Source of the DNA: a plasmid
Reading direction: 5' to 3' (one strand)
Sequence record: NZ_CP081909.1
DNA: 32,968 bases
In this document: positions 3,129 to 14,282 of the stretch, piece by piece
Position numbering within the stretch: the first letter of the stretch is position 1
How the letters are laid out: each line of letters opens with the position of its first letter
Position numbers and translations under genes: made by a program
Notes under the pieces: model-generated
Database searches by the model: none
What the model was told of the DNA's origin: nothing
What the model saw: the letters and a program-made list of their open reading frames with translations, nothing else

Positions 3129-4247
3129 ATGAAAAAAAGTACAGTAATGCTTTGGGCAATCTTTGGAGCGCTACTCATGGGTTGCTCAGACGAGGAGATT
3201 GCGAATGTGGAAACCTCCTCGCGGAATGCGATTGGTTTTAACGTGTTAAGTAATGCGGCGGAAACGAGGGCTACCCCTACTACCCCCTCCAACTTGACGA
3301 GCACCGATTTCGACGTGTTCGCTTTTACGGCGGATGGTACTGCCTTCATGGGAAAGGTCGACACGGATTTTGAACATGACGGAGTGAAGATCGTGTACAA
3401 AGATGGTAAGTGGGATTATGACGATGCGAACGACCTTCGTTATTGGCCTTCCGAGGCTTTGGACTTTTACGCGTTCAATCCCGGAACGGTTAGTGACGAC
3501 ATGTTGACGTTTTATATGTGGGAAGCCTCCGGGACTGTCCAAAAGATAAGTTATACCTGCATTGATGAGTATGGAGCCGGTACTCATGCAAACTACGACG
3601 TGATGTATGCCATAGCCAAAGGCCAGACAAAAGCCACAAACAACGGAGTAGTGAAATTTAACTTCAAACATATTCTGTCTCAGGTCGTATTCAAAGCAAA
3701 GACCCAATACGATAACATGCAGGTGGACATCAAGGAGATCAAGATTCATAATATCAAATTTGCCGGCGTCTTCACATTGCCTGCGACAGCCGATGGAACG
3801 GGAAGTTGGAGTTCGCCTGATTTAGCATTTCCACACGCATTTACCGTAGTGAAAAACGCAAACATCACGGTCAATAGCAATACCGCAGCTACCGATATTT
3901 CCACAAATACTCCTATGCTGAATATACCACAGACGCTGACTGCTTGGACTGTTTCCGCACCCAACAAAAGCAAGTTGGAGGCCGATAATGCGAAGCAATG
4001 TTATCTGGAGATCACCTGCAAAATCCGGCAGTCTGGAGTTTATCTGTTGGGTTCAGCAAGTGAATACAAAACAATTTATGTTCCGTTCGGAGATACATGG
4101 GGAGCGGGCAAGCGTCATATCTACACGTTGATTTTCGGTGGTGGTTATACTGATCAGGGAGAGGCTGTGTTGAATCCGATCCAGTTTGATGCAGAGACAA
4201 CAGACTGGGTTGAAGCAGCAAATAGCGACGTAAACGTTAAACCTTAA
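3129..4247 (+). CDS. Fimbrillin-family lipoprotein (FimA/Mfa1-like structural subunit)
   Basis: N-terminal lipoprotein signal MKKSTVMLWAIFGALLMGCSDE. About 370 aa, Thr/Asn-rich. Terminal gene of the fimbrial operon. Start chosen at the internal Met that gives a canonical signal peptide. Confidence 0.5.
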   Translation: MKKSTVMLWAIFGALLMGCSDEEIANVETSSRNAIGFNVLSNAAETRATPTTPSNLTSTDFDVFAFTADGTAFMGKVDTDFEHDGVKIVYKDGKWDYDDANDLRYWPSEALDFYAFNPGTVSDDMLTFYMWEASGTVQKISYTCIDEYGAGTHANYDVMYAIAKGQTKATNNGVVKFNFKHILSQVVFKAKTQYDNMQVDIKEIKIHNIKFAGVFTLPATADGTGSWSSPDLAFPHAFTVVKNANITVNSNTAATDISTNTPMLNIPQTLTAWTVSAPNKSKLEADNAKQCYLEITCKIRQSGVYLLGSASEYKTIYVPFGDTWGAGKRHIYTLIFGGGYTDQGEAVLNPIQFDAETTDWVEAANSDVNVKP

Positions 4248-4269
4248 ACCAAACGTTTATTAATATCGT

Positions 4270-4330
4270 ACCCGTTGGCAGGTTAAACATACGCAAGATT
4301 AATCCCGCCAACGGGTTCTTTATTGCTTTT
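4270..4330. terminator. Hairpin (CCCGTTGGC / GCCAACGGG) plus T-rich tail between the convergent fimbrial operon and the partition operon
   Basis: 9-bp GC-rich stem with a long loop, followed by TCTTTATTGCTTTTA. Placed between convergent transcription units. Confidence 0.35.
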
Positions 4331-4427
4331 ATCATCTATAATTTATGTGTAGGGTTGCTTTTTGCGTACCTTTTTCCGGGAGAATTTCTTTTGTGGCGTG
4401 TTTGCCCTGTATATTCCCGATACGCTG

Positions 4428-4685
4428 TTATAGCAGGGAACTGTTTTTATCCAAGTAGTCAGATATAGCCTCTTGCAATACCGATTTTAGCGAATTGCCT
4501 TTGCGGATCGCGATCAGCTTTAAGTTCTGGTGATAGGTTTCGTCCATGACAAAATTACAATGCACGGTTTTCACCTTCTTCGGCTTTTGAGCCTCTTTTT
4601 GCCCGGCCGTGGATTGGATCAGGCTGTCTAAGCCCCCGGTCAGCCCGGCCGACATACTGTTTTTTAAATCGTTCTTCTTTGCCAT
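4428..4685 (-). CDS. Small DNA-binding partner of ParA (putative centromere-binding or ParB-like adaptor)
   Basis: 85-aa basic protein immediately downstream of parA (5-nt gap) on the same strand, the classic two-gene partition operon arrangement. Confidence 0.4.
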   Translation of the reverse strand: MAKKNDLKNSMSAGLTGGLDSLIQSTAGQKEAQKPKKVKTVHCNFVMDETYHQNLKLIAIRKGNSLKSVLQEAISDYLDKNSSLL

Positions 4686-4689
4686 ATGG

Positions 4690-5448
4690 TTACTTTATTT
4701 CTGTTAGCAGTTCGTTACATACACCCTCGTAGTCCTCTGCCCCGGCAGATTTTGGGGCATAGTGAAAAATATCCTGCCCTTGTGTCGGGGCTTCGGCCAG
4801 CGCAATGGAGTTGCGTATATGGGTGCTGAACACTTTGCCCTGGAATGTTTCCTGTACCAGTTCCGAAACGCTCTTGTTCAGGTTCTTTCTTCCGTCGTAC
4901 TGGGTTATCAGGACCCCGGCGATCGAAAGATCCGAGTTCAAACGTTGCTGCACCTTGTGGACTACCTGCATAAGTTTGGCCATTCCACGCATTGCCAGGA
5001 ATTGAGCCTGAACCGGGATAATCAACCGATCCGAGGCCGTCAGTGCGTTAAGCGTGAGCAGCGACAGCGAGGGAGGACAGTCGATCAGGATATAATCGAA
5101 TTTCTCCTTTTGGCCTTTGATAAGGTGGGCTAAGATAAGCTCCCGTCCGGCCTCGTTGATTAACTCCGTTTCAACGGCCGAGAGATCCAGGCAGGAGGGA
5201 ACGACGCTAAGGCCGTCCTTATGCTCGTAGATCGGCAGGTCGTATTCGCCTTTCATCGCACCGTAGATCGTTTGGGGAAGCTCCGCAGAGAAGCCCAGCG
5301 ATTCGGTCAGGTTGGCCTGCCCGTCAAGGTCGATCAAAAGAACCTTGTACCCTTTTTGATGTAACGCACCGCCCAGGTTGATCGTGGTAGTGGTCTTTCC
5401 TACTCCCCCCTTGTGATTCAATACGGAGATTACTTTTGCTTTGCTCAT
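4690..5448 (-). CDS. parA: ParA/Soj-family partition ATPase
   Basis: Deviant Walker A motif KGGVGKTTT near the N-terminus. About 250 aa. Followed by the small partner gene. Confidence 0.9.
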   Translation of the reverse strand: MSKAKVISVLNHKGGVGKTTTTINLGGALHQKGYKVLLIDLDGQANLTESLGFSAELPQTIYGAMKGEYDLPIYEHKDGLSVVPSCLDLSAVETELINEAGRELILAHLIKGQKEKFDYILIDCPPSLSLLTLNALTASDRLIIPVQAQFLAMRGMAKLMQVVHKVQQRLNSDLSIAGVLITQYDGRKNLNKSVSELVQETFQGKVFSTHIRNSIALAEAPTQGQDIFHYAPKSAGAEDYEGVCNELLTEIK

Positions 5449-5492
5449 AAATTCAGTTTTTTAAATGATTGTCATGTCCGCAAATATAGTCA

Positions 5493-5530
5493 AAATACTA
5501 ATATACTAAAATACTAAAAGTAGTATTTTT
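5493..5530. promoter_or_regulatory. TAGTA/TACTA motif cluster (AATACTAATATACTAAAATACTAAAAGTAGTATTTTT) in the divergent parA / 5673 promoter region
   Basis: Member of a motif family recurring at about 9627-9664, 10296-10340, 12683-12730, 13262-13300, 13383-13400, 14215-14262 and 15527-15640. Confidence 0.45.
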
Positions 5531-5565
5531 CGCTTTTTGCGTGTTTTTTGTGCCGATCGGGGAAG

Positions 5566-5610
5566 CGTACCGAAATAAATCCGGTTTCCACCTTTCGGTA
5601 CGTTTTGTTT
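5566..5610 (+). terminator. Intrinsic terminator or attenuator hairpin in the leader upstream of the 5673 gene
   Basis: CGTACCGAAA...TTTCGGTACG, a 10-bp perfect stem, followed by TTTTGTTT. Lies between the TAGTA motif cluster and the 5673 start. Confidence 0.45.
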
Positions 5611-5672
5611 CTGTGCCGGAATTAATCAAAGAATTATTTCATTATCTTTGTGACTGAACAAGCTAATAAGAA

Positions 5673-5960
5673 ATGAACAACAAAGAAAAATCATACTATG
5701 CCAATATTACCAAGCATTTGAACAGTGTTTATAAAAGTGTTGAACTTGATATAGATAGCATATGTTCCATTTTGGAACATGTGGGTAATGACGGCAAACA
5801 AAGATATACTACTAATTATGCTATTCTGCCAATAGAATATTGGATTAAAGGTAAGAACGCAGCTTTTTCGGTAAAAAAGGCGAATGGCGTATCAGAACTT
5901 GAAAATCATTTTGCTACATTTGTTAACGCTAAGAGGATAAAAAGAAAAACCCGTTCTTGA
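5673..5960 (+). CDS. Hypothetical small protein, AT-rich, first gene of the accessory cassette
   Basis: 95-aa ORF with a basic C-terminus. Sits in a markedly AT-rich segment together with the downstream Abi-like gene. No recognisable motif. Confidence 0.3.
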   Translation: MNNKEKSYYANITKHLNSVYKSVELDIDSICSILEHVGNDGKQRYTTNYAILPIEYWIKGKNAAFSVKKANGVSELENHFATFVNAKRIKRKTRS

Positions 5961-6059
5961 TGAACGGGTATATCCTTAACTTGGTTACGTGTTTTGATAA
6001 CAGAGGCTTTACCAAGCATTACAATGCAAAGATAGTAATCTTATTCCAAATACCAAAAA

Positions 6060-6776
6060 ATGAAATATAAAAAAATAGTTAGGTTATATTCAAATTCACG
6101 TGTGGCTAAGTATTATCGGGCTACAAGTGGAGATAAAAATAAGGCGGTAATGCTTTATTTTGCCAATATGAAGATAGCGCAGGCTTTTCATCCGCTACTT
6201 TCTTCCTTTGAAGTTATCTTGCGGAATCAGTTACATTATGCCCTGGCGCATCATTTTTCGGACGGGAACTGGATCATAAATCAGAAAAACGGGTTTATGG
6301 TAGCTTCTTCCTTGACGCACACGAATAAGCGTACAAAGAAGCAAGTAACCAATAGATACTTGCTGACGGAAGTGCAAAAAGCTGAAAAGAAAATTTCCGA
6401 TCGTGGCGCGAGGATTACAGCAGGGAGGGTTATAGCGGAACAGACCTTGGGCTTCTGGAACAGTTTTTATGAGGTTCATCATTATATACTATTATCCGGT
6501 GTCCCTTGTACCATATTTAAGAAACTGCCTTCCGGATATGGACGGAAACAAGTCAATGATGTTATCACACAAGTTCGTGAATTGAGGAATCGCATTAATC
6601 ATAATGAGCCTATTTGCTTTGTAAATAAAAAATGTGATTTTTCTTATGTAAGGGAAATGTATAGGTTAATTAGCAAATTTCTTTCTTGGATAGATCCGGA
6701 AATAATGCCGTCCTTGAAAGAGGTGGATAAGGTGATTAAAACAATAGATAAGGAAGAGCAAAAGCAAAAGGGATGA
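6060..6776 (+). CDS. Abi_2-family (AbiD/AbiF-like) abortive-infection-type protein
   Basis: Signature-like motifs EVILRNQLHYALAHHF and VRELRNRINHNEPI, matching the conserved RN..AH. elements of the Abi_2 family. About 240 aa and AT-rich, as is typical. Confidence 0.6.
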   Translation: MKYKKIVRLYSNSRVAKYYRATSGDKNKAVMLYFANMKIAQAFHPLLSSFEVILRNQLHYALAHHFSDGNWIINQKNGFMVASSLTHTNKRTKKQVTNRYLLTEVQKAEKKISDRGARITAGRVIAEQTLGFWNSFYEVHHYILLSGVPCTIFKKLPSGYGRKQVNDVITQVRELRNRINHNEPICFVNKKCDFSYVREMYRLISKFLSWIDPEIMPSLKEVDKVIKTIDKEEQKQKG

Positions 6777-7411
6777 ATGTGGTTATCTATTCACGTGTAA
6801 GCTCGCAGTCGGCCAGGCAATCGACCGAACGGCAGGTTGTCGATCTGGAGAGGTTCGCAGCCGGACGGGGGTACGAGGTGACGGCGGTCTTTGAGGAAAA
6901 GATAAGCGGACGAAAGGCCAATATCGAACGCCCGGTTTTAAGCCGTTGCCTGGAATACTGCACAGATCCGCAGAACCGGGTGGATATGTTGTTGTTGACC
7001 GAGATCTCACGCCTGGGGCGTTCCACCCTGGAGATCCTAAAGGCACTCGATACGCTGCACACGCATAAAATATGCGTGTATATCCAAAACCTGAACCTGG
7101 AAACATTACGGTCGGACAAGACGGTAAACCCCTTGTCCTCTCTGATTACTACCCTATTGGGGGAACTGGCCGCAATCGAACGCCAGGGGATCATCGACCG
7201 CCTTAATAGCGGACGGGAGTTGTACATCCAGAAAGGGGGCAGGCTGGGACGGAAGCCGGGAAGCCGGAAAACGGCCGAGCAGAGGAAAGAGGAATACCGG
7301 GAGGCGATCGCCTTGTTAAAGAAAGGCTACTCGATCCGGAACGTGGCGAAGCTCACGGGAAAAGCCGTTTCGACGATACAACAAGTAAAAAAAGACTTCA
7401 TTAATAGCTGA
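6773..7411 (+). CDS. Small serine recombinase (resolvase/invertase family) with a C-terminal HTH
   Basis: N-terminal VVIYSRVSSQSARQ catalytic-serine motif. C-terminal HTH GYSIRNVAKLTGKAVSTI. Start ATG overlaps the Abi stop (ATGA). Confidence 0.8.
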   Translation: MNVVIYSRVSSQSARQSTERQVVDLERFAAGRGYEVTAVFEEKISGRKANIERPVLSRCLEYCTDPQNRVDMLLLTEISRLGRSTLEILKALDTLHTHKICVYIQNLNLETLRSDKTVNPLSSLITTLLGELAAIERQGIIDRLNSGRELYIQKGGRLGRKPGSRKTAEQRKEEYREAIALLKKGYSIRNVAKLTGKAVSTIQQVKKDFINS

Positions 7412-7441
7412 TTATCGGAACAAATATTGTATTTTTGCAAC

Positions 7442-7507
7442 AAATACGAGTAAATGCGCGAAATTAAAAACGAGTATTTGCACATGTCTAAAAACGAGTA
7501 TTTGCAC
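7442..7507 (+). promoter_or_regulatory. Three 24-bp-phased direct repeats (AAAtACGAGTAaaTGCgC / AAAAACGAGTATTTGCAC twice) upstream of fic
   Basis: Units at 7442-7459, 7466-7483 and 7490-7507, between the recombinase stop and the probable fic start. Confidence 0.45.
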
Positions 7508-7540
7508 GAAAATAATCAGAATCTAAATAAAAACGGTAGT

Positions 7541-9049
7541 ATGGCAACAATGGCGGAGAAAATGGTGGCTTCACTGGAGGAATTAAGAAAGCTCCAGGAG
7601 AAAGACCGCTGTGTCGTTCTACAAGGGACGGCCGAGATAGGGAGGACGCATTTAACCCGGCTGTTGGATAACGGCTGGTTGCAGGAAGTAATGAAAGGCT
7701 GGTATATTGCGGCCAGGCCGGGAACAGAGGGGGATACGACGGTCTGGTACACCTCATTCTGGTATTTTATTGCGAAATATGCGGCCGTCCGGCTGGGGGA
7801 ACGGTGGTGTTTGACGGCCGACCAGTCGCTGGATCTGTATTCGGGGAAAACGACCGTGCCCGTGCAGGTGGTTATCAAGTCGCCGAAAGGCCATAACAAC
7901 ACGCAAAAGCTGATGTATGATACCTCGCTTTTGGTGTTTCAAAGCGAGATTCCGGATCAGGTATATAAAGAGCCGGAATACGGCCTTAATCTCTATCCGC
8001 TTGCCGAAGCCCTGGTATATGCCACGCCGAGATATTTCCAAGTGGAGAAGATCGCAGCCCGCACCTGCCTGGCCATGATACGGGACGCTGCCGATATATT
8101 AAAGGTACTGACGAAAAACGGGGCTTCGCTTCGTGCCGGAAGAATAGCCGGGGCGTTCCGGAACATCGGGAACAGCGAAATCGCCGACAGCATCGTTTCC
8201 ACGATGCGGGGGTTCGGGTATGACGTGAGAGAAGAAGATCCGTTCGAGGATCAGCCACGAACGCCCCTTGTTTATGAGGTGTCGCCTTACGTCACACGCT
8301 TGCGCCTGATGTGGGAGAACATGAGGGATAAGGTTGTAGAACTGTTTCCCGAAGCCCCTGGAAAGATTGATGACGTGGAGGGGTATTTGAGATCCGTCGA
8401 TGAAAAGTATTCGGAGGACGCTTATCATTCTCTCTCGATCGAGGGATATAGGGTTTCCCCGGAACTGATCGAGAAAGTGCGTGTCGGGAACTGGAAGCCG
8501 GAGGAAGAAGATAAGGAGCATAAAAACGCACTGGTGGCACGTGGGTATTACCAGGCGTTCCAGGCTGTCAGGGGGACGATCTCCGATATACTGAAAGGAA
8601 AGAACGCAGGGGAAGCGGTAAGGGCGGATCATCCCCTCTGGTATATGCAGATGTGGATGCCGTTCGTTACGGTGGGGATCTTGCAAAGGGAGGATCTTGT
8701 GGGTTATCGTACCGGGCAGGTCTATATACGGGGATCGCAACATATCCCGTTGAACCCGAAAGCGGTCAGGGACGCTATGCCCGTCCTTTTCGATCTCTTG
8801 AAGAATGAGCCGCACCCGGCGGTAAGGGCTGTCCTGGGACACTTCTTTTTCGTGTATATTCACCCCTATATGGACGGGAACGGGAGAATGGGACGGTTCG
8901 TCTTGAACGCCATGCTTGCGTCTGGAGGCTATAACTGGACGGTTGTTCCGGTGGAGCGTAGAAAAGAATATATGAAAGCGTTGGAAAAGGCCAGCGTGGA
9001 GGGGGATATTTCCGAATTTGCCAAAGTGATAGCCTCGCTGGTCAAGTAA
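7541..9049 (+). CDS. fic: Fic/Doc-family protein (AMPylator-type) with an approximately 300-aa N-terminal extension
   Basis: Canonical Fic motif HPYMDGNGRMGR near the C-terminus. An upstream SLSIEG matches the [ST]xxxE[GN] inhibitory-helix pattern of class II Fic proteins. Start moved to an internal Met downstream of three phased direct repeats. Confidence 0.75.
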   Translation: MATMAEKMVASLEELRKLQEKDRCVVLQGTAEIGRTHLTRLLDNGWLQEVMKGWYIAARPGTEGDTTVWYTSFWYFIAKYAAVRLGERWCLTADQSLDLYSGKTTVPVQVVIKSPKGHNNTQKLMYDTSLLVFQSEIPDQVYKEPEYGLNLYPLAEALVYATPRYFQVEKIAARTCLAMIRDAADILKVLTKNGASLRAGRIAGAFRNIGNSEIADSIVSTMRGFGYDVREEDPFEDQPRTPLVYEVSPYVTRLRLMWENMRDKVVELFPEAPGKIDDVEGYLRSVDEKYSEDAYHSLSIEGYRVSPELIEKVRVGNWKPEEEDKEHKNALVARGYYQAFQAVRGTISDILKGKNAGEAVRADHPLWYMQMWMPFVTVGILQREDLVGYRTGQVYIRGSQHIPLNPKAVRDAMPVLFDLLKNEPHPAVRAVLGHFFFVYIHPYMDGNGRMGRFVLNAMLASGGYNWTVVPVERRKEYMKALEKASVEGDISEFAKVIASLVK

Positions 9050-9071
9050 TGATATTTATAATAATGACAAT

Positions 9072-9470
9072 ATGAAATCAACGGAATATATCGAATGGGA
9101 TAAACTGGAGCAGATCCCGTTCTGCCTTTGCCGGATCGCGGAGGATGAAGAAAACCAGGAAATAGATGTTTATTATCTGGATAAACGGGTTTGCCATGAT
9201 TACGATCATGTGGGGCATTATTTTCGTACTGCGATAATCATGTTTAGAAGGATCAGGAACATAACGGCCGATTGGGTGAACCTCAAAAACCTTTGGTTGC
9301 TAAGGGACTGTATCAGGGAGAATTTTAATCATGGCCTGGAGGTGGACGATCTGATCTTCGGGGAAACATTCGACGGTGAGGATCCGGAAACTATAAAGCC
9401 GCTAACCAAAGAACGGCTGTTCAAGATTAAAAAGGTGATTCAGGAAAAAGATCCATACGCTACCGTATAG
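9072..9470 (+). CDS. Hypothetical acidic protein, possible Fic partner
   Basis: 132-aa ORF starting 22 nt after the fic stop on the same strand. No recognisable motif. Confidence 0.35.
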   Translation: MKSTEYIEWDKLEQIPFCLCRIAEDEENQEIDVYYLDKRVCHDYDHVGHYFRTAIIMFRRIRNITADWVNLKNLWLLRDCIRENFNHGLEVDDLIFGETFDGEDPETIKPLTKERLFKIKKVIQEKDPYATV

Positions 9471-9665
9471 GGGGGAGTATATAAAAACAAAACCCTGGAG
9501 TTTGTCTTGCGACAGGGACAACAGGGGATTACTACGCAAATATAGGGAGTATATCTCGTTTATACAAGGATTTTATGGCTTTTCTGGATTGATTTTAAAA
9601 AGAATAGAGGCTTGTTCCCTGGAATGTAGTATTTACTACTTTTAGTATTTTAGTATATTAGTACG

Positions 9666-9767
9666 CTTTTCTTTTGGAGGATTTGGGCGTTCCCGTAAAC
9701 GGTCGGGCTTTCCGCCTCCAAGTCCTCGCCTAAAGGCTGTGGGCTTTCCACTGCAATCCCTAACGCA
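9666..9767 (+). repeat. Non-coding element C, copy 1 (5' part of the 1-kb structured region)
   Basis: About 90% identical to 30313-30407. Core: CTTTTCTTTTGG..GGGCGTTCCCGT...CGGTCGGGCTTT.CGC.TCCAAGTCCTCGCCTAAAGGCTGTGGGCTTT.C.CTGCAATCCCTAACGCA. Confidence 0.5.
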
Positions 9768-10295
9768 TGAATACCCCCACCCACCCGATTAAGGTAGGCT
9801 ATTTCCGGATAGAGCCGTTCGGTGAAGCCAGCCGGATAAAAGCCGCCTGACTTTTCACTGATCGGCACAATCCGGGTACTCCGGTAGCCGATTGTCGAAC
9901 CCGGTTTTAAACCCCCTTTCAGGGGAGAGAGGTATTTTAGTTTTTCCGGTGTGGCCGCCTTGCGTTTACCTTGACCGGGGTTTTTGTCTGCAAAGGTCAA
10001 ACGGCTTTTTCCATATCCCAAGTTGAGCCGCAAGCGGCTTTTAGAAAAAATCTCCAGCCTGGCTAAAGCCAGGTAGTATTTTTCCTAAAAAACTTGTGCT
10101 ATGGAAAAAACCGTTTGGGGTGTTCTCATACAAAAACCCCTCGGAACTCAAGGTAAACGCAAGGCGACCACACCGACAGCCCCGAAAAACCAAAATGAGG
10201 TTGTCTTGATACAAAAACATCGGAATCTTAGGCATCCGCAAGGTTTTTTGGGGGGGAGAGGGTGCGAGGTGGGGAGTTTACTATCGGAAAAAATC

Positions 10296-10340
10296 AGGTA
10301 GTAAATACTAAATTTAGTATATACTAAAATACTACTTTTT
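10296..10340. promoter_or_regulatory. TAGTA/TACTA motif cluster upstream of ardC (includes the perfect palindrome TAGTATATACTA)
   Basis: GTAGTAAATACTAAATTTAGTATATACTAAAATACTAC, about 150 nt upstream of the ardC start. Confidence 0.45.
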
Positions 10341-10487
10341 CATATAATTATCTGATAAATAGTTAGTTAAATGTTGTTTAAATACTTGCATATCTCAAAT
10401 AAAAGTGCTATATTAGAGGTATAGAAAAAGAGATAACAACCTTTAGAACTGGCTCACCCACCAGGATAAAGAACGGGGGACGTAGTT

Positions 10488-11504
10488 ATGAAAACTGATT
10501 ATTTCGACAAGGCAGCGCAACAGTTTGCAAATTTGATGATCGAGAAGATCCAGCAGGTAGAGGACAATTGGCAAAAGCCCTGGATCACCATTGCGGCGAA
10601 TACACGCAATTTCTTTCCGCAGAACCTCACAGGACGCAGGTACGCCGGAGGTAACGCCTTTTTACTTCTTTTCCTTTGCGAGAAATTCCAGTACCAGACA
10701 CCCGTATTTATGACATTCAACCAGGCGAAAGAGGCCGGGATCTCCGTGCTGAAAGGATCGAAATCGTTTCCGGTCTATTACTTCCTTTTCTACGTGTACC
10801 ACAAGGAAACACGCAAGAAAATAACCTTTGAGGAATACAAGGCGTTAAGCCGGGAGCAGCAACAGGAATACAACGTTATACCGACCTATAAATATTACTC
10901 GGTCTTTAACCTGGATCAGACCAATTTTTCGGACGTGAGGCCGGAAGAATGGGAAGCGTTAAGGGAGAAGTTCAGAGGGGGACAGGCAGAGCAGCCCGAC
11001 GGGACAACCGGAGAGGCGCACCCCGAAATAGACGCCATGCTGGAGGCGAAAAGCTGGTTTTGCCCGATACGGGAGCAGCAAGGCGACAGGGCTTTCTATT
11101 CTCCTTTAGCCGATTATATCGTAGTGCCGCTTCGCTCGCAGTTCGTCGATATGCAGAGCTTTTACGAAACGCTTCTGCATGAAATGGGACATTCCACGGG
11201 ACACCCCACCCGATTGAACCGGGATCTTGCGCACCCGTTCGGATCAGAGGAATACGGCAAGGAGGAATTAACGGCCGAGTTCGCCGCAGCCCTGGCAGGA
11301 ATGTTTTTCGGGATAGCCGAACATATACGCACTGAAAACGCAGCTTATCTGAAAAGCTGGATAAAGGCGATCCGGGAAGAACCCAAGTTCATTTTAAACG
11401 TACTGGCCGACGCTATGAAAATTGTCAAGATGATAGCCGGGAAACTGAATATCTCCGTAGAAAGCGAGGAAACGGCAGCAGATGAAGCGGAACAGGTGGC
11501 ATGA
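10488..11504 (+). CDS. ardC: ArdC-like antirestriction protein (N-terminal ssDNA-binding DUF1738-like domain plus C-terminal zincin metalloprotease)
   Basis: N-terminal RRYAGGNAFLL (Y.G.N...L motif). C-terminal HEMGHSTGH (HExxH). About 340 aa. Follows the large structured non-coding region. Confidence 0.7.
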   Translation: MKTDYFDKAAQQFANLMIEKIQQVEDNWQKPWITIAANTRNFFPQNLTGRRYAGGNAFLLLFLCEKFQYQTPVFMTFNQAKEAGISVLKGSKSFPVYYFLFYVYHKETRKKITFEEYKALSREQQQEYNVIPTYKYYSVFNLDQTNFSDVRPEEWEALREKFRGGQAEQPDGTTGEAHPEIDAMLEAKSWFCPIREQQGDRAFYSPLADYIVVPLRSQFVDMQSFYETLLHEMGHSTGHPTRLNRDLAHPFGSEEYGKEELTAEFAAALAGMFFGIAEHIRTENAAYLKSWIKAIREEPKFILNVLADAMKIVKMIAGKLNISVESEETAADEAEQVA

Positions 11505-12680: not shown

Positions 12681-12752
12681 TACTACATCTACTAAAAATA
12701 GTAGATACTACTTTTAGTATTTTAGTTCGTACGCTCAATCCTGGGAGAAAAA

Positions 12753-13275: not shown

Positions 13276-13300
13276 TAGTATTTTTGTAATGCGCATTACA
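13276..13300. promoter_or_regulatory. Composite operator 1: TAGTATTTTTG plus the 16-bp palindrome TGTAATGCGCATTACA
   Basis: Exact palindrome. Same composite at 13392-13416 and 14258-14282. Lies in the divergent regulator/sprT intergenic region. Confidence 0.5.
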
Positions 13301-13391
13301 GTAGTGTATTTTGTAAACGTAACGTGTACTTATTCAAGTATTTTAGTAAAATGGGTATCTTTTATATCCGGTTATACTAATATTAGTATTT

Positions 13392-13416
13392 TAGTATTTT
13401 TGTAATGTACATTACA
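13392..13416. promoter_or_regulatory. Composite operator 2: TAGTATTTTTG plus TGTAATGTACATTACA
   Basis: See operator 1. Lies 45 nt upstream of the sprT-like start. Confidence 0.5.
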
Positions 13417-14195: not shown

Positions 14196-14257
14196 AGATT
14201 TCAAGCATACTCGTTTTACTAAAATACTAAGATTAGTATAGACTTATCTTAGTCTTT

Positions 14258-14282
14258 TAGTATTATTGTAATGTGCATTACA
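14258..14282. promoter_or_regulatory. Composite operator 3: TAGTATTATTG plus TGTAATGTGCATTACA
   Basis: See operator 1. Lies between the sprT-like stop and the bidirectional terminator. A half-site TGTAATGTGCATT recurs at about 15955-15967. Confidence 0.45.

Follow-up and report, generated by a model that had tools for sequence, protein, structure and literature searches.

Do five co-oriented genes packed between the partition genes and ardC of a Bacteroidales plasmid form one mobile defence island, or do they make up a changeable region built around a single fixed gene? The question is raised by a stretch of plasmid DNA from sequence record NZ_CP081909.1 (32,968 nucleotides; hereafter, the window), in which open reading frames (ORFs) at positions 5673–5960, 6060–6776, 6773–7411, 7454–9049, and 9072–9470 all lie on the plus strand. 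An earlier note, made from the sequence alone, had listed these five co-oriented genes (a small ORF, an Abi_2-like gene, a serine recombinase, a Fic gene, and an unknown gene, here ORF5), all of which are indeed present, and had read them as one phage-defence or addiction island on a CTnDOT-like element. We compared the window with 50 related plasmids from PLSDB and with loci fetched from metagenomes and contigs (given L-numbers below). The reading that we favor, with a probability of roughly 70%, is that the locus is a variable accessory or defence region of a p5482-family plasmid, arranged around a conserved small serine recombinase that is likely a multimer resolvase. The stretch from the partition genes to ardC thereby keeps its defence-type character, but the single five-gene cassette is given up. 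The comparisons speak to anatomy and evolutionary history; the biochemical functions named below are those suggested by family membership.

In essence, the window is one whole plasmid of ~33 kb from the family of the Bacteroides thetaiotaomicron plasmid p5482, and not a CTnDOT-like integrative element. In the literature, p5482 is called cryptic, and no transfer of it was seen under the conditions used (PMC1976400). A B. faecis plasmid, unnamed2 of BFG-108 (99.4% identity over 7.2 kb), has its own Rep, ParA, mobilization, and Tra genes, and in RefSeq the Abi, recombinase, and Fic genes of a near-identical plasmid already bear the names of their families. Throughout the 33-kb family, the recombinase, Fic, ORF5, and ArdC are constant, and it is the stretch 5633–6772 that varies. 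The presence/absence comparison that had been proposed thus revealed a cassette-like segment, but not a cassette comprising all five genes. The 98-kb pMMCAT plasmids have ParG–ParA, a hypothetical gene followed by rhuM, and the recombinase gene (rec) in common with this family, and diverge ~277 nt past the rec stop codon; the published description of pMMCAT does not discuss the recombinase, RhuM, or Fic of the locus.

Relative to p5482, homology ends at 5632 and restarts exactly at 6773, the first nucleotide of the recombinase ATG, which defines a variable slot of 5633–6772. Homology with pMMCAT likewise ends at 5632. The slot of p5482 contains a gene for a 109-residue hypothetical protein (hyp109) and one for a 276-residue RhuM. 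Metagenome contigs furnish full arrays of the order ParA / hyp109-RhuM-Abi-Rec-Fic-ORF5-ArdC (L014, L016, and L023, the last with a p5482-type RhuM), and arrays of the window type as well (L015 and L017–L019). A simple exchange of RhuM for Abi was dropped in favor of differential insertions and deletions (indels) once pMMCAT and the full arrays had been compared.

The difference between Abi-bearing and Abi-less loci is a clean indel of ~849 bp, flanked by the 7-bp direct repeat ATGAATG. After rhuM, the full arrays and the plasmids with an Abi remnant read TTATAATATCCTTTGTCTT-ATGAATG-GGCTGTCGC…, and the end of the cassette reads …GCAAAAGGG-ATGAATG-TGGTT; Abi-less plasmids read TTATAATATCCCTTGTCTT-ATGAATG-TGGTT. 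That is, the spacer passes directly into ATGAATGTGGTT in the Abi-less plasmids, while in those with a full RhuM plus Abi, or with an Abi remnant, the spacer is followed by ATGAATG, the cassette, and only then ATGAATGTGGTT. The repeat was found on both sides of the indel at six loci and as a single copy in four Abi-less plasmids. Its right copy (6773–6779, plus strand) constitutes the first seven nucleotides of rec and supplies the TGA stop codon of Abi: positions 6766–6785 are AAAAGGGATGAATGTGGTTA, with the rec ATG at 6773–6775 and the Abi TGA at 6774–6776 overlapping within GGGATGAATG. The overlap of the two genes (ATGA) that had been pointed out previously is therefore evident in the sequence, and both it and the position of the breakpoint at the rec ATG are explained by the identity of the 7-bp repeat with the start of rec. 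This indel would provide a simple marker for following variants in metagenomes.

A second kind of boundary is found in the pMMCAT plasmids. There, window positions 5940–6039 and 6660–6772, the two ends of the Abi cassette, are joined, and the intervening 620 bp (6040–6659) are deleted; the deletion junction displays no site motif and no useful microhomology. The boundaries thus differ from those expected of an integron-like cassette, consisting either of the 7-bp direct repeat that matches the start of rec or of deletions that have neither motif nor microhomology.

Which arrangement came first? The RhuM-13 nt-Rec junction recurs in the diverged locus L100 (73% DNA identity); for that reason, RhuM-Rec is probably the older state, with Abi having been inserted later. 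The composition of the genes had been taken to suggest cassette assembly by recombination. The small ORF and Abi have fractional GC contents of 0.326 and 0.379, compared with 0.534 in the recombinase and 0.531 in Fic; the reported step at the overlap is real, but a reading of it as the mark of a recent junction did not survive comparison with diverged pairs, in which the junction is conserved. In another backbone family, Abi-Rec pairs at 75–94% DNA identity retain the ATGA junction (L021, L022, L024, L025, L027, L064, and L069), and the GC contrast in diverged pairs is much weaker (e.g., 0.36 vs. 0.42). Because the ATGA is kept in diverged pairs with a weaker contrast, we take the Abi-Rec junction to be old, with no sign of recent assembly.

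The left end of the slot has a separate history. Its rearranged junction (5633–5939, plus strand) holds most of the 95-residue ORF at 5673–5960, and this ORF resembles a fragment of rhuM. At the DNA level, window positions 5705–5892 match the 5′ part of p5482 rhuM with 79% identity; the protein encoded by the ORF aligns with RhuM over 65% of its length at 67% identity, corresponding approximately to RhuM residues 44–109. The PADLOC model PDC-S05 matched the ORF partially (1.5e-8) and the full RhuM at 5e-133. No Pfam match was obtained for the 95-residue ORF; the full RhuM of 276 residues has a Virulence_RhuM (PF13310) match, and the full-length architecture of that family (~275–290 residues) is absent from the ORF. 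An intermediate form occurs in L020, where hyp109 is followed by a longer, C-terminally truncated rhuM, the tail of which equals window 5705–5939, and then by Abi. The RhuM similarity, the PDC-S05 matches, and the intermediate lead us to regard the 95-residue ORF as a remnant of a rhuM gene rather than a new small gene, and it is probably a pseudogene. The small ORF that had been counted as a separate gene therefore exists, but as a piece of RhuM. A small gene precedes rhuM in more than one setting: in p5482 (L002, 2837–4000) and in L116 (719–1873), a gene for a ~104–109-residue hypothetical protein, for which no domain match was found, lies 3–4 nt before rhuM. This pairing occurs in p5482/pMMCAT-type plasmids and in one unrelated plasmid, and the two genes may form a unit.

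The gene within the indel, Abi (6060–6776, plus strand), is intact and encodes an AbiD/F-like, PD-T4-5-like protein of 238 residues. The Pfam and PADLOC searches suggested for the locus bore out the domain assignments. Pfam matched Abi_2 (PF07751, residues 15–185, 28.5 bits vs. a cut-off of 25.6), Resolvase (PF00239, 105.9 bits), and Fic (51.4 bits); PADLOC matched PD-T4-5 (1.4e-14) and AbiD (1.4e-4) to Abi, the SoFic core to Fic, and PDC-S05 to the small ORF. Abi has the R-x4-6-H motif of HEPN proteins in the form R176-N-R-I-N-H181 (encoded at 6585–6602), and residues E51, R55, N56, R176, N177, R178, and H181 are invariant in 24 sequences. The combination of E51/R55/N56 with an R-x4-H-type signature is that of the Abi2/AbiD/AbiF HEPN family (PMC3710099). 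PD-T4-5 is a plasmid-borne AbiF/D relative that conferred Abi-type protection in E. coli (PMC9519451). The window protein is like PD-T4-5 and AbiD-AbiF in that it derives from a single plasmid-borne gene of similar size with the R-x4-H motif, and the PD-T4-5 model spans its residues 2–222. It is nonetheless distant from them (52 bits for PD-T4-5, 19.6 bits for AbiD), resides in Bacteroidales, and has its gene inserted at the 5′ end of a recombinase gene.

The distribution of the Abi family (766 homologues of ~238–240 residues) suggests that the gene does not depend on its neighbors. Most close homologues (~84% identity) occur with no recombinase at all, for example within tra operons of integrative and conjugative elements or beside restriction-modification genes, and distant homologues are found on 84 plasmids of many phyla. 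On these grounds, we consider Abi a self-contained single-gene module. Its 5′ non-coding part (5940–6059, plus strand; with a hairpin at 5949–5969) travels with it in diverged loci, being conserved alongside Abi at 75–86% DNA identity (L024, L027, L085, and others). Of the 50 relatives in PLSDB, the B. faecis plasmid is the sole carrier of Abi.

The fixed point next to the slot is the recombinase gene (6773–7411, plus strand), a conserved backbone gene. Its 212-residue product has the architecture of the small serine recombinases, with a Resolvase domain and a C-terminal HTH_7 domain (PF02796, 24.9 bits), and in comparisons with the PDB it is about equally close to Gin, Sin, and γδ resolvase. 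The protein is ≥97% identical in p5482 and pMMCAT plasmids and 80–94% identical in a second backbone family. The two backbones differ in their composition: ParG/ParA … Rec … ArdC in p5482/pMMCAT, and relaxase-coupling protein … Rec … primase in pBUN1-like plasmids. The genes around rec vary on both sides, and almost all are of defence type. Upstream, we encountered RhuM, Abi_2, an ATPase_2/DUF234 protein (PDC-S27), and a TOTE conflict system (PDC-M16A/B); downstream were Fic with ORF5, a second Abi_2-like gene (L101), DUF2971 (PDC-S31), SIR2-STAND, and Schlafen/AlbA_2. In all contexts examined, rec sits close behind the preceding gene, by overlap or at 13–38 nt, the exception being L066 (326 nt). 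No conserved res-like flank was detected around rec in diverged backbones, where homology stops at the gene ends.

The recombinase, which is probably a plasmid multimer resolvase, is like the Sin, γδ, and Tn3 resolvases and the Gin, Hin, and Mpi invertases in its domain pair, its size of 212 residues, and its location in the backbone near partition genes. It departs from the known small serine recombinases in that neither a res nor a hix site was identified and no space for one is present directly upstream, in its unusual N-terminus, and in that its gene always stands last behind exchangeable defence genes. The N-terminus (6773–6835) is MNVVIYSRVSSQSARQSTERQ, with the unusual start YSRVSSQSARQSTERQ, and is conserved in the family. 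It offers two candidate catalytic serines: Pfam aligns Ser10 (in YSRVS), and phmmer against Gin aligns Ser17. The 5′ end and flanks of rec may constitute a recurrent landing pad for defence genes in at least two Bacteroidales plasmid backbones, a notion that we hold less strongly than the AbiE-type reading of Fic given below. In a 470-kb contig of Parabacteroides massiliensis SN4 (L099, 2772–8639), which may be chromosomal, a 97%-identical recombinase comes right after a two-gene TOTE system (PDC-M16A/B), and a remnant of the 620-bp Abi deletion also lies upstream of the recombinase.

Could this recombinase instead switch the expression of the genes around it? A perfect 30-nt inverted repeat (5496–5525 and 9634–9663) brackets the gene block and encloses rec, and the best NCBIfam and PDB matches of the recombinase are the Mpi invertase family and Gin, respectively. 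One could accordingly view the intervening 4.1 kb as a Hin/Gin-like invertible segment with the 30-nt repeats as crossover sites. We consider this extremely unlikely. The Mpi score (NF009949) was 64.9 bits vs. a cut-off of 272, which places the protein outside that family. The repeat is itself built from an 8-bp-spaced motif, ATACTAA/TTAGTAT, of which the window has 12 copies where 0.18 would be expected. All fall into six intergenic clusters spread over 5.5–14.3 kb; these TAGTATTTTAGTAT-type clusters are at 5495–5516, 9643–9664, 10321–10334, 12715–12728, 13276–13405, and 14216–14263. The motif was present in all 11 ParG/ParA-type backbones and in none of ten other backbones with the same recombinase family. 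Moreover, the orientation was uniform in 16 of 16 PLSDB plasmids covering both arms and in 17 of 17 fetched loci with ParA and Rec. Inversion of the bracketed segment was rejected on account of the multi-copy nature of the motif, its linkage to the ParG/ParA backbone, and the lack of an inverted form among the relatives compared. As far as can be seen, the suggestion that the recombinase serves cassette mobility or inversion fares no better, as there is no site motif at the junctions and the repeat tracks the backbone.

The dispersed repeats are likely operator, centromere, or iteron sites, and most likely operator or centromere sites for an 85-residue ParG-like protein (encoded at 4428–4685), which gave weak ParG/ribbon-helix-helix matches. 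Ribbon-helix-helix partition and regulator proteins, e.g., ParG and omega of pSM19035, serve as the model for this assignment. The left cluster (5492–5526, no strand assigned) lies in the divergent parA/cassette promoter region and contains the left arm; the right cluster (9627–9663, also unstranded), containing the right arm, belongs to the backbone and is still present in L101, from which Fic and ORF5 are missing. In one pMMCAT-like plasmid of B. uniformis (L006, CP054201.1), an insertion of ~1.3 kb (3221–4545) splits the left cluster at window 5513–5521.

With these results in hand, we return to the idea of a single mobile island for defence or addiction, which recombination would have assembled from all five genes and which its own serine recombinase would move or invert. 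In support of this view are the co-oriented and tightly packed genes, the GC step at the Abi/Rec junction, the defence-type profile matches, and the finding that a block comprising the truncated RhuM, Abi, and Rec (~5705–7494) is ~94% identical in L021 and L022, which have a different backbone. The parts nevertheless behave separately: Rec, Fic, and ORF5 stay constant throughout the 33-kb family, while the small ORF with Abi, RhuM, and Fic with ORF5 vary independently of one another. Abi homologues mostly lack Rec, and Rec occurs without Abi in L100, L005, and L099. The junctions, 7-bp repeats or plain deletions, share no common site motif, and no conserved sequence flanks Rec in diverged backbones. 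We therefore judge the one-island interpretation very unlikely.

Several points tell against the reading that we prefer, a variable defence region around a likely resolvase. The insertion of Abi cannot be distinguished from its loss by slippage between the 7-bp repeats. The best NCBIfam and PDB matches of the recombinase are to invertases (Mpi and Gin), albeit far under the family cut-offs, and no res site was found for it, the upstream gene abutting rec. The Pfam score of Abi_2 barely surpasses its cut-off. Finally, diverged Abi-Rec pairs on other backbones are still adjacent and still overlap in ATGA, which raises the alternative that Abi and the recombinase form a functional two-gene unit, in which, for example, translational coupling ties Abi dosage to rec, or Abi enforces retention of a resolvase operon. 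The overlap is indeed found in every Abi-Rec pair down to 75% DNA identity in at least two backbone families (in L101 as well as in the seven loci listed above). Yet most close Abi homologues have no Rec nearby, most of the plasmids have Rec without Abi (carried by one of the 50 PLSDB relatives), the position of the cassette in the first seven nucleotides of rec accounts for the overlap, and in L066 a 326-nt insert separates Abi from Rec. A functional link between Abi and rec is thus possible but unlikely.

Downstream of the recombinase, the Fic gene requires a correction of its start. The ORF had been drawn from 7454; the conserved start is 7541, yielding a protein of 502 residues (7541–9049, plus strand). 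The family consensus begins at that Met-Ala, the RefSeq annotation has the same start, and the ATG at 7454 is out of frame in p5482. In comparison with p5482 (L002), the Rec-Fic intergenic region (7412–7540, plus strand), within which the former start lies, has a 24-nt tandem duplication (AAAAACGAGTATTTGCAC…; copies at 7466–7489 and 7490–7513) that is present as a single copy in p5482 and that produces a repeated KNEYLH in the ORF extended to 7454.

The family of this Fic protein counts over 8000 relatives, the majority from Bacteroidota, and a length of ~502 residues is conserved among them. Both of the motifs previously noted are present. The active-site motif HxFx(D/E)GNGRxxR takes the form HPYMDGNGRMGR (8861–8896, plus strand), with Tyr replacing Phe; H441, P442, Y443, D445, G446, N447, G448, R449, and R452 are invariant in 27 sequences. 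The inhibitory motif (S/T)xxxE(G/N) is S297-L-S-I-E301-G302 (8429–8446, plus strand), which is also invariant, is N-terminal to the Fic core in a predicted helix, and aligns with the inhibitory TVAIEG of human FICD. The class II assignment made at the outset is accordingly upheld, and the motifs mark the protein as a class II enzyme of the self-inhibited kind, the core of which is FICD-like. The protein differs from FICD/HYPE in having neither tetratricopeptide repeats nor a membrane anchor; in their place is a 248-residue N-terminal module (residues 1–248) consisting of a winged helix and an α/β portion. The PADLOC SoFic model matches the core (72.9 bits; residues 321–529 of the 531-residue call), but the NCBIfam SoFic equivalog NF046030 gave 25.5 bits vs. 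a cut-off of 550, so that the protein falls outside that family; furthermore, the winged helix of SoFic is C-terminal, whereas the AbiEi-like module of the window protein is N-terminal.

The N-terminal part resembles AbiEi and Rv2827c in fold only. By sequence, it found nothing in the PDB at expectation values up to 10 and nothing in PHROGs, and in Pfam one of 14 members touches AbiEi_4 (expectation value 0.14). Compared with AbiEi/Rv2827c (MenA-type) antitoxins, the module lacks sequence similarity and is fused to a Fic domain. Nor does the locus look like an AbiE/MenAT type IV system, as no gene for an AbiEii/MenT nucleotidyltransferase partner is present and the likeness is confined to the fold of residues 1–248. 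We tentatively propose, with the odds against it, that AbiE-type toxin-antitoxin or abortive-infection systems have a single-chain counterpart in the ~500-residue Fic family, where the AbiEi-like module would regulate or trigger in cis a FICD-like AMP-transferase that replaces the separate nucleotidyltransferase toxin. Homologues at 57–69% identity to the window Fic reside in unrelated chromosomal and mobile-element contexts.

ORF5 (9072–9470, plus strand) starts 22 nt past the Fic stop codon and encodes an acidic protein of 132 residues (isoelectric point 5.0) with no recognizable fold: no domain was found in four profile libraries, and no structural neighbor was detected. Is it a partner or immunity protein of Fic, the two forming a toxin-immunity or toxin-antitoxin pair that would act as a plasmid addiction module? 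The short gap, the shared strand, and the acidity of ORF5 are compatible with this idea, and the two genes are always together in p5482-type plasmids; even in L101, they are missing together as one block of 2047 bp. Beyond these plasmids, the association vanishes. The Fic homologues at 57–69% identity have no ORF5-like neighbor, and ORF5 homologues (56–66% identity) occur on further plasmids of Bacteroidales, all of which lack Fic, behind an HTH_3 gene, an ORF6N gene, or the gene of a different resolvase. In addition, the FICD-like inhibitory motif is in cis, which obviates a partner in trans; with this arrangement and an ORF5 that is not conserved beside Fic homologues, the locus does not correspond to a class I FicT/FicA pair. 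We regard such a pair as distinctly unlikely; co-occurrence was not found among the relatives of the two genes. ORF5 was correctly described as acidic and adjacent to Fic, but a partnership does not follow when each family is found without the other; judging from its homologues, it is an orphan of Bacteroidales plasmids, unrelated to Fic and no conserved partner of it. The absence in L101, where the last 22 nt of ORF5 are left, is a deletion and no evidence of partnership. That same contig, from P. distasonis NM39_I3 and p5482-type, has a second Abi_2-like gene (8800–9468) between window-equivalent positions 9547 and 9621; its product is 27% identical to the window Abi and matches PD-T4-5.

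How might the locus have arisen, and how might it function? The upstream operon would probably be transcribed from a promoter region shared divergently with parA; a σ70 promoter scan is not informative for Bacteroides. An older arrangement, hyp109-RhuM-Rec, would have received the ~849-bp Abi cassette at nucleotide 7 of rec with a 7-bp duplication (ATGAATG), leaving Abi to end in the ATGA of rec and the start of rec intact. A later rearrangement, seen in the window, would have removed hyp109 and most of rhuM, leaving the 95-residue fragment. Abi would act as a single-gene HEPN-type abortive-infection protein like PD-T4-5 and AbiD/F, presumably cleaving RNA upon phage infection. Independently, Fic would be a self-inhibited AMP-transferase with a FICD-like core, held in check in cis by the glutamate of SLSIEG and regulated or targeted by its AbiEi-like N-terminal module; once inhibition is released, it may arrest growth, for defence or for plasmid retention. 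Through indels, different relatives have come to possess or lack different parts of the region, a pattern typical of defence genes when selection fluctuates.

Joint occurrence of RhuM-like, Abi2/HEPN, and Fic/Doc genes in defence loci is known (PMC3710099). The window is like the RhuM-HEPN-Fic/Doc sets of restriction-modification loci (Anantharaman et al. 2013) in clustering the same three families, with RhuM fragmentary here and full-length in relatives; it differs in having no restriction-modification genes and in being plasmid-borne, with its genes grouped about a likely resolvase in the interval from the partition genes to ardC. The association of the gene set and the RefSeq annotation of the near-identical plasmid are therefore already on record. 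What the present comparison adds is the 7-bp-flanked Abi indel at the rec start, rec as the fixed point of a variable defence patch in two backbones, the AbiEi-like front half of the Fic family, and the ORF5 family with no recognizable fold. Few mobile elements of human gut Bacteroidales are shared as widely as plasmids of the p5482 and pMMCAT types. A variable patch between par and ardC, combining the Abi of a small minority of plasmids with a constant Fic gene, helps to account for differences between strains in their sensitivity to phages and in plasmid fitness. The Fic architecture and the ORF5 family are concrete, testable targets, and current understanding is not overturned.

An Rfam scan of positions 5300–10600 gave no match, and one prominent secondary structure lies in this range. 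Positions 9940–10185 form an imperfect inverted repeat of ~250 nt, which as single-stranded DNA folds into one long hairpin with free energies of −80 kcal/mol for the plus strand and −88 for the minus strand (z = −12.4 and −14.3 vs. shuffled sequences). The structure lies ~300 nt upstream of ardC, partly within a hypothetical ORF annotated on the minus strand (9650–10033). This hairpin may be a single-strand promoter or a priming site of a conjugative leading region.

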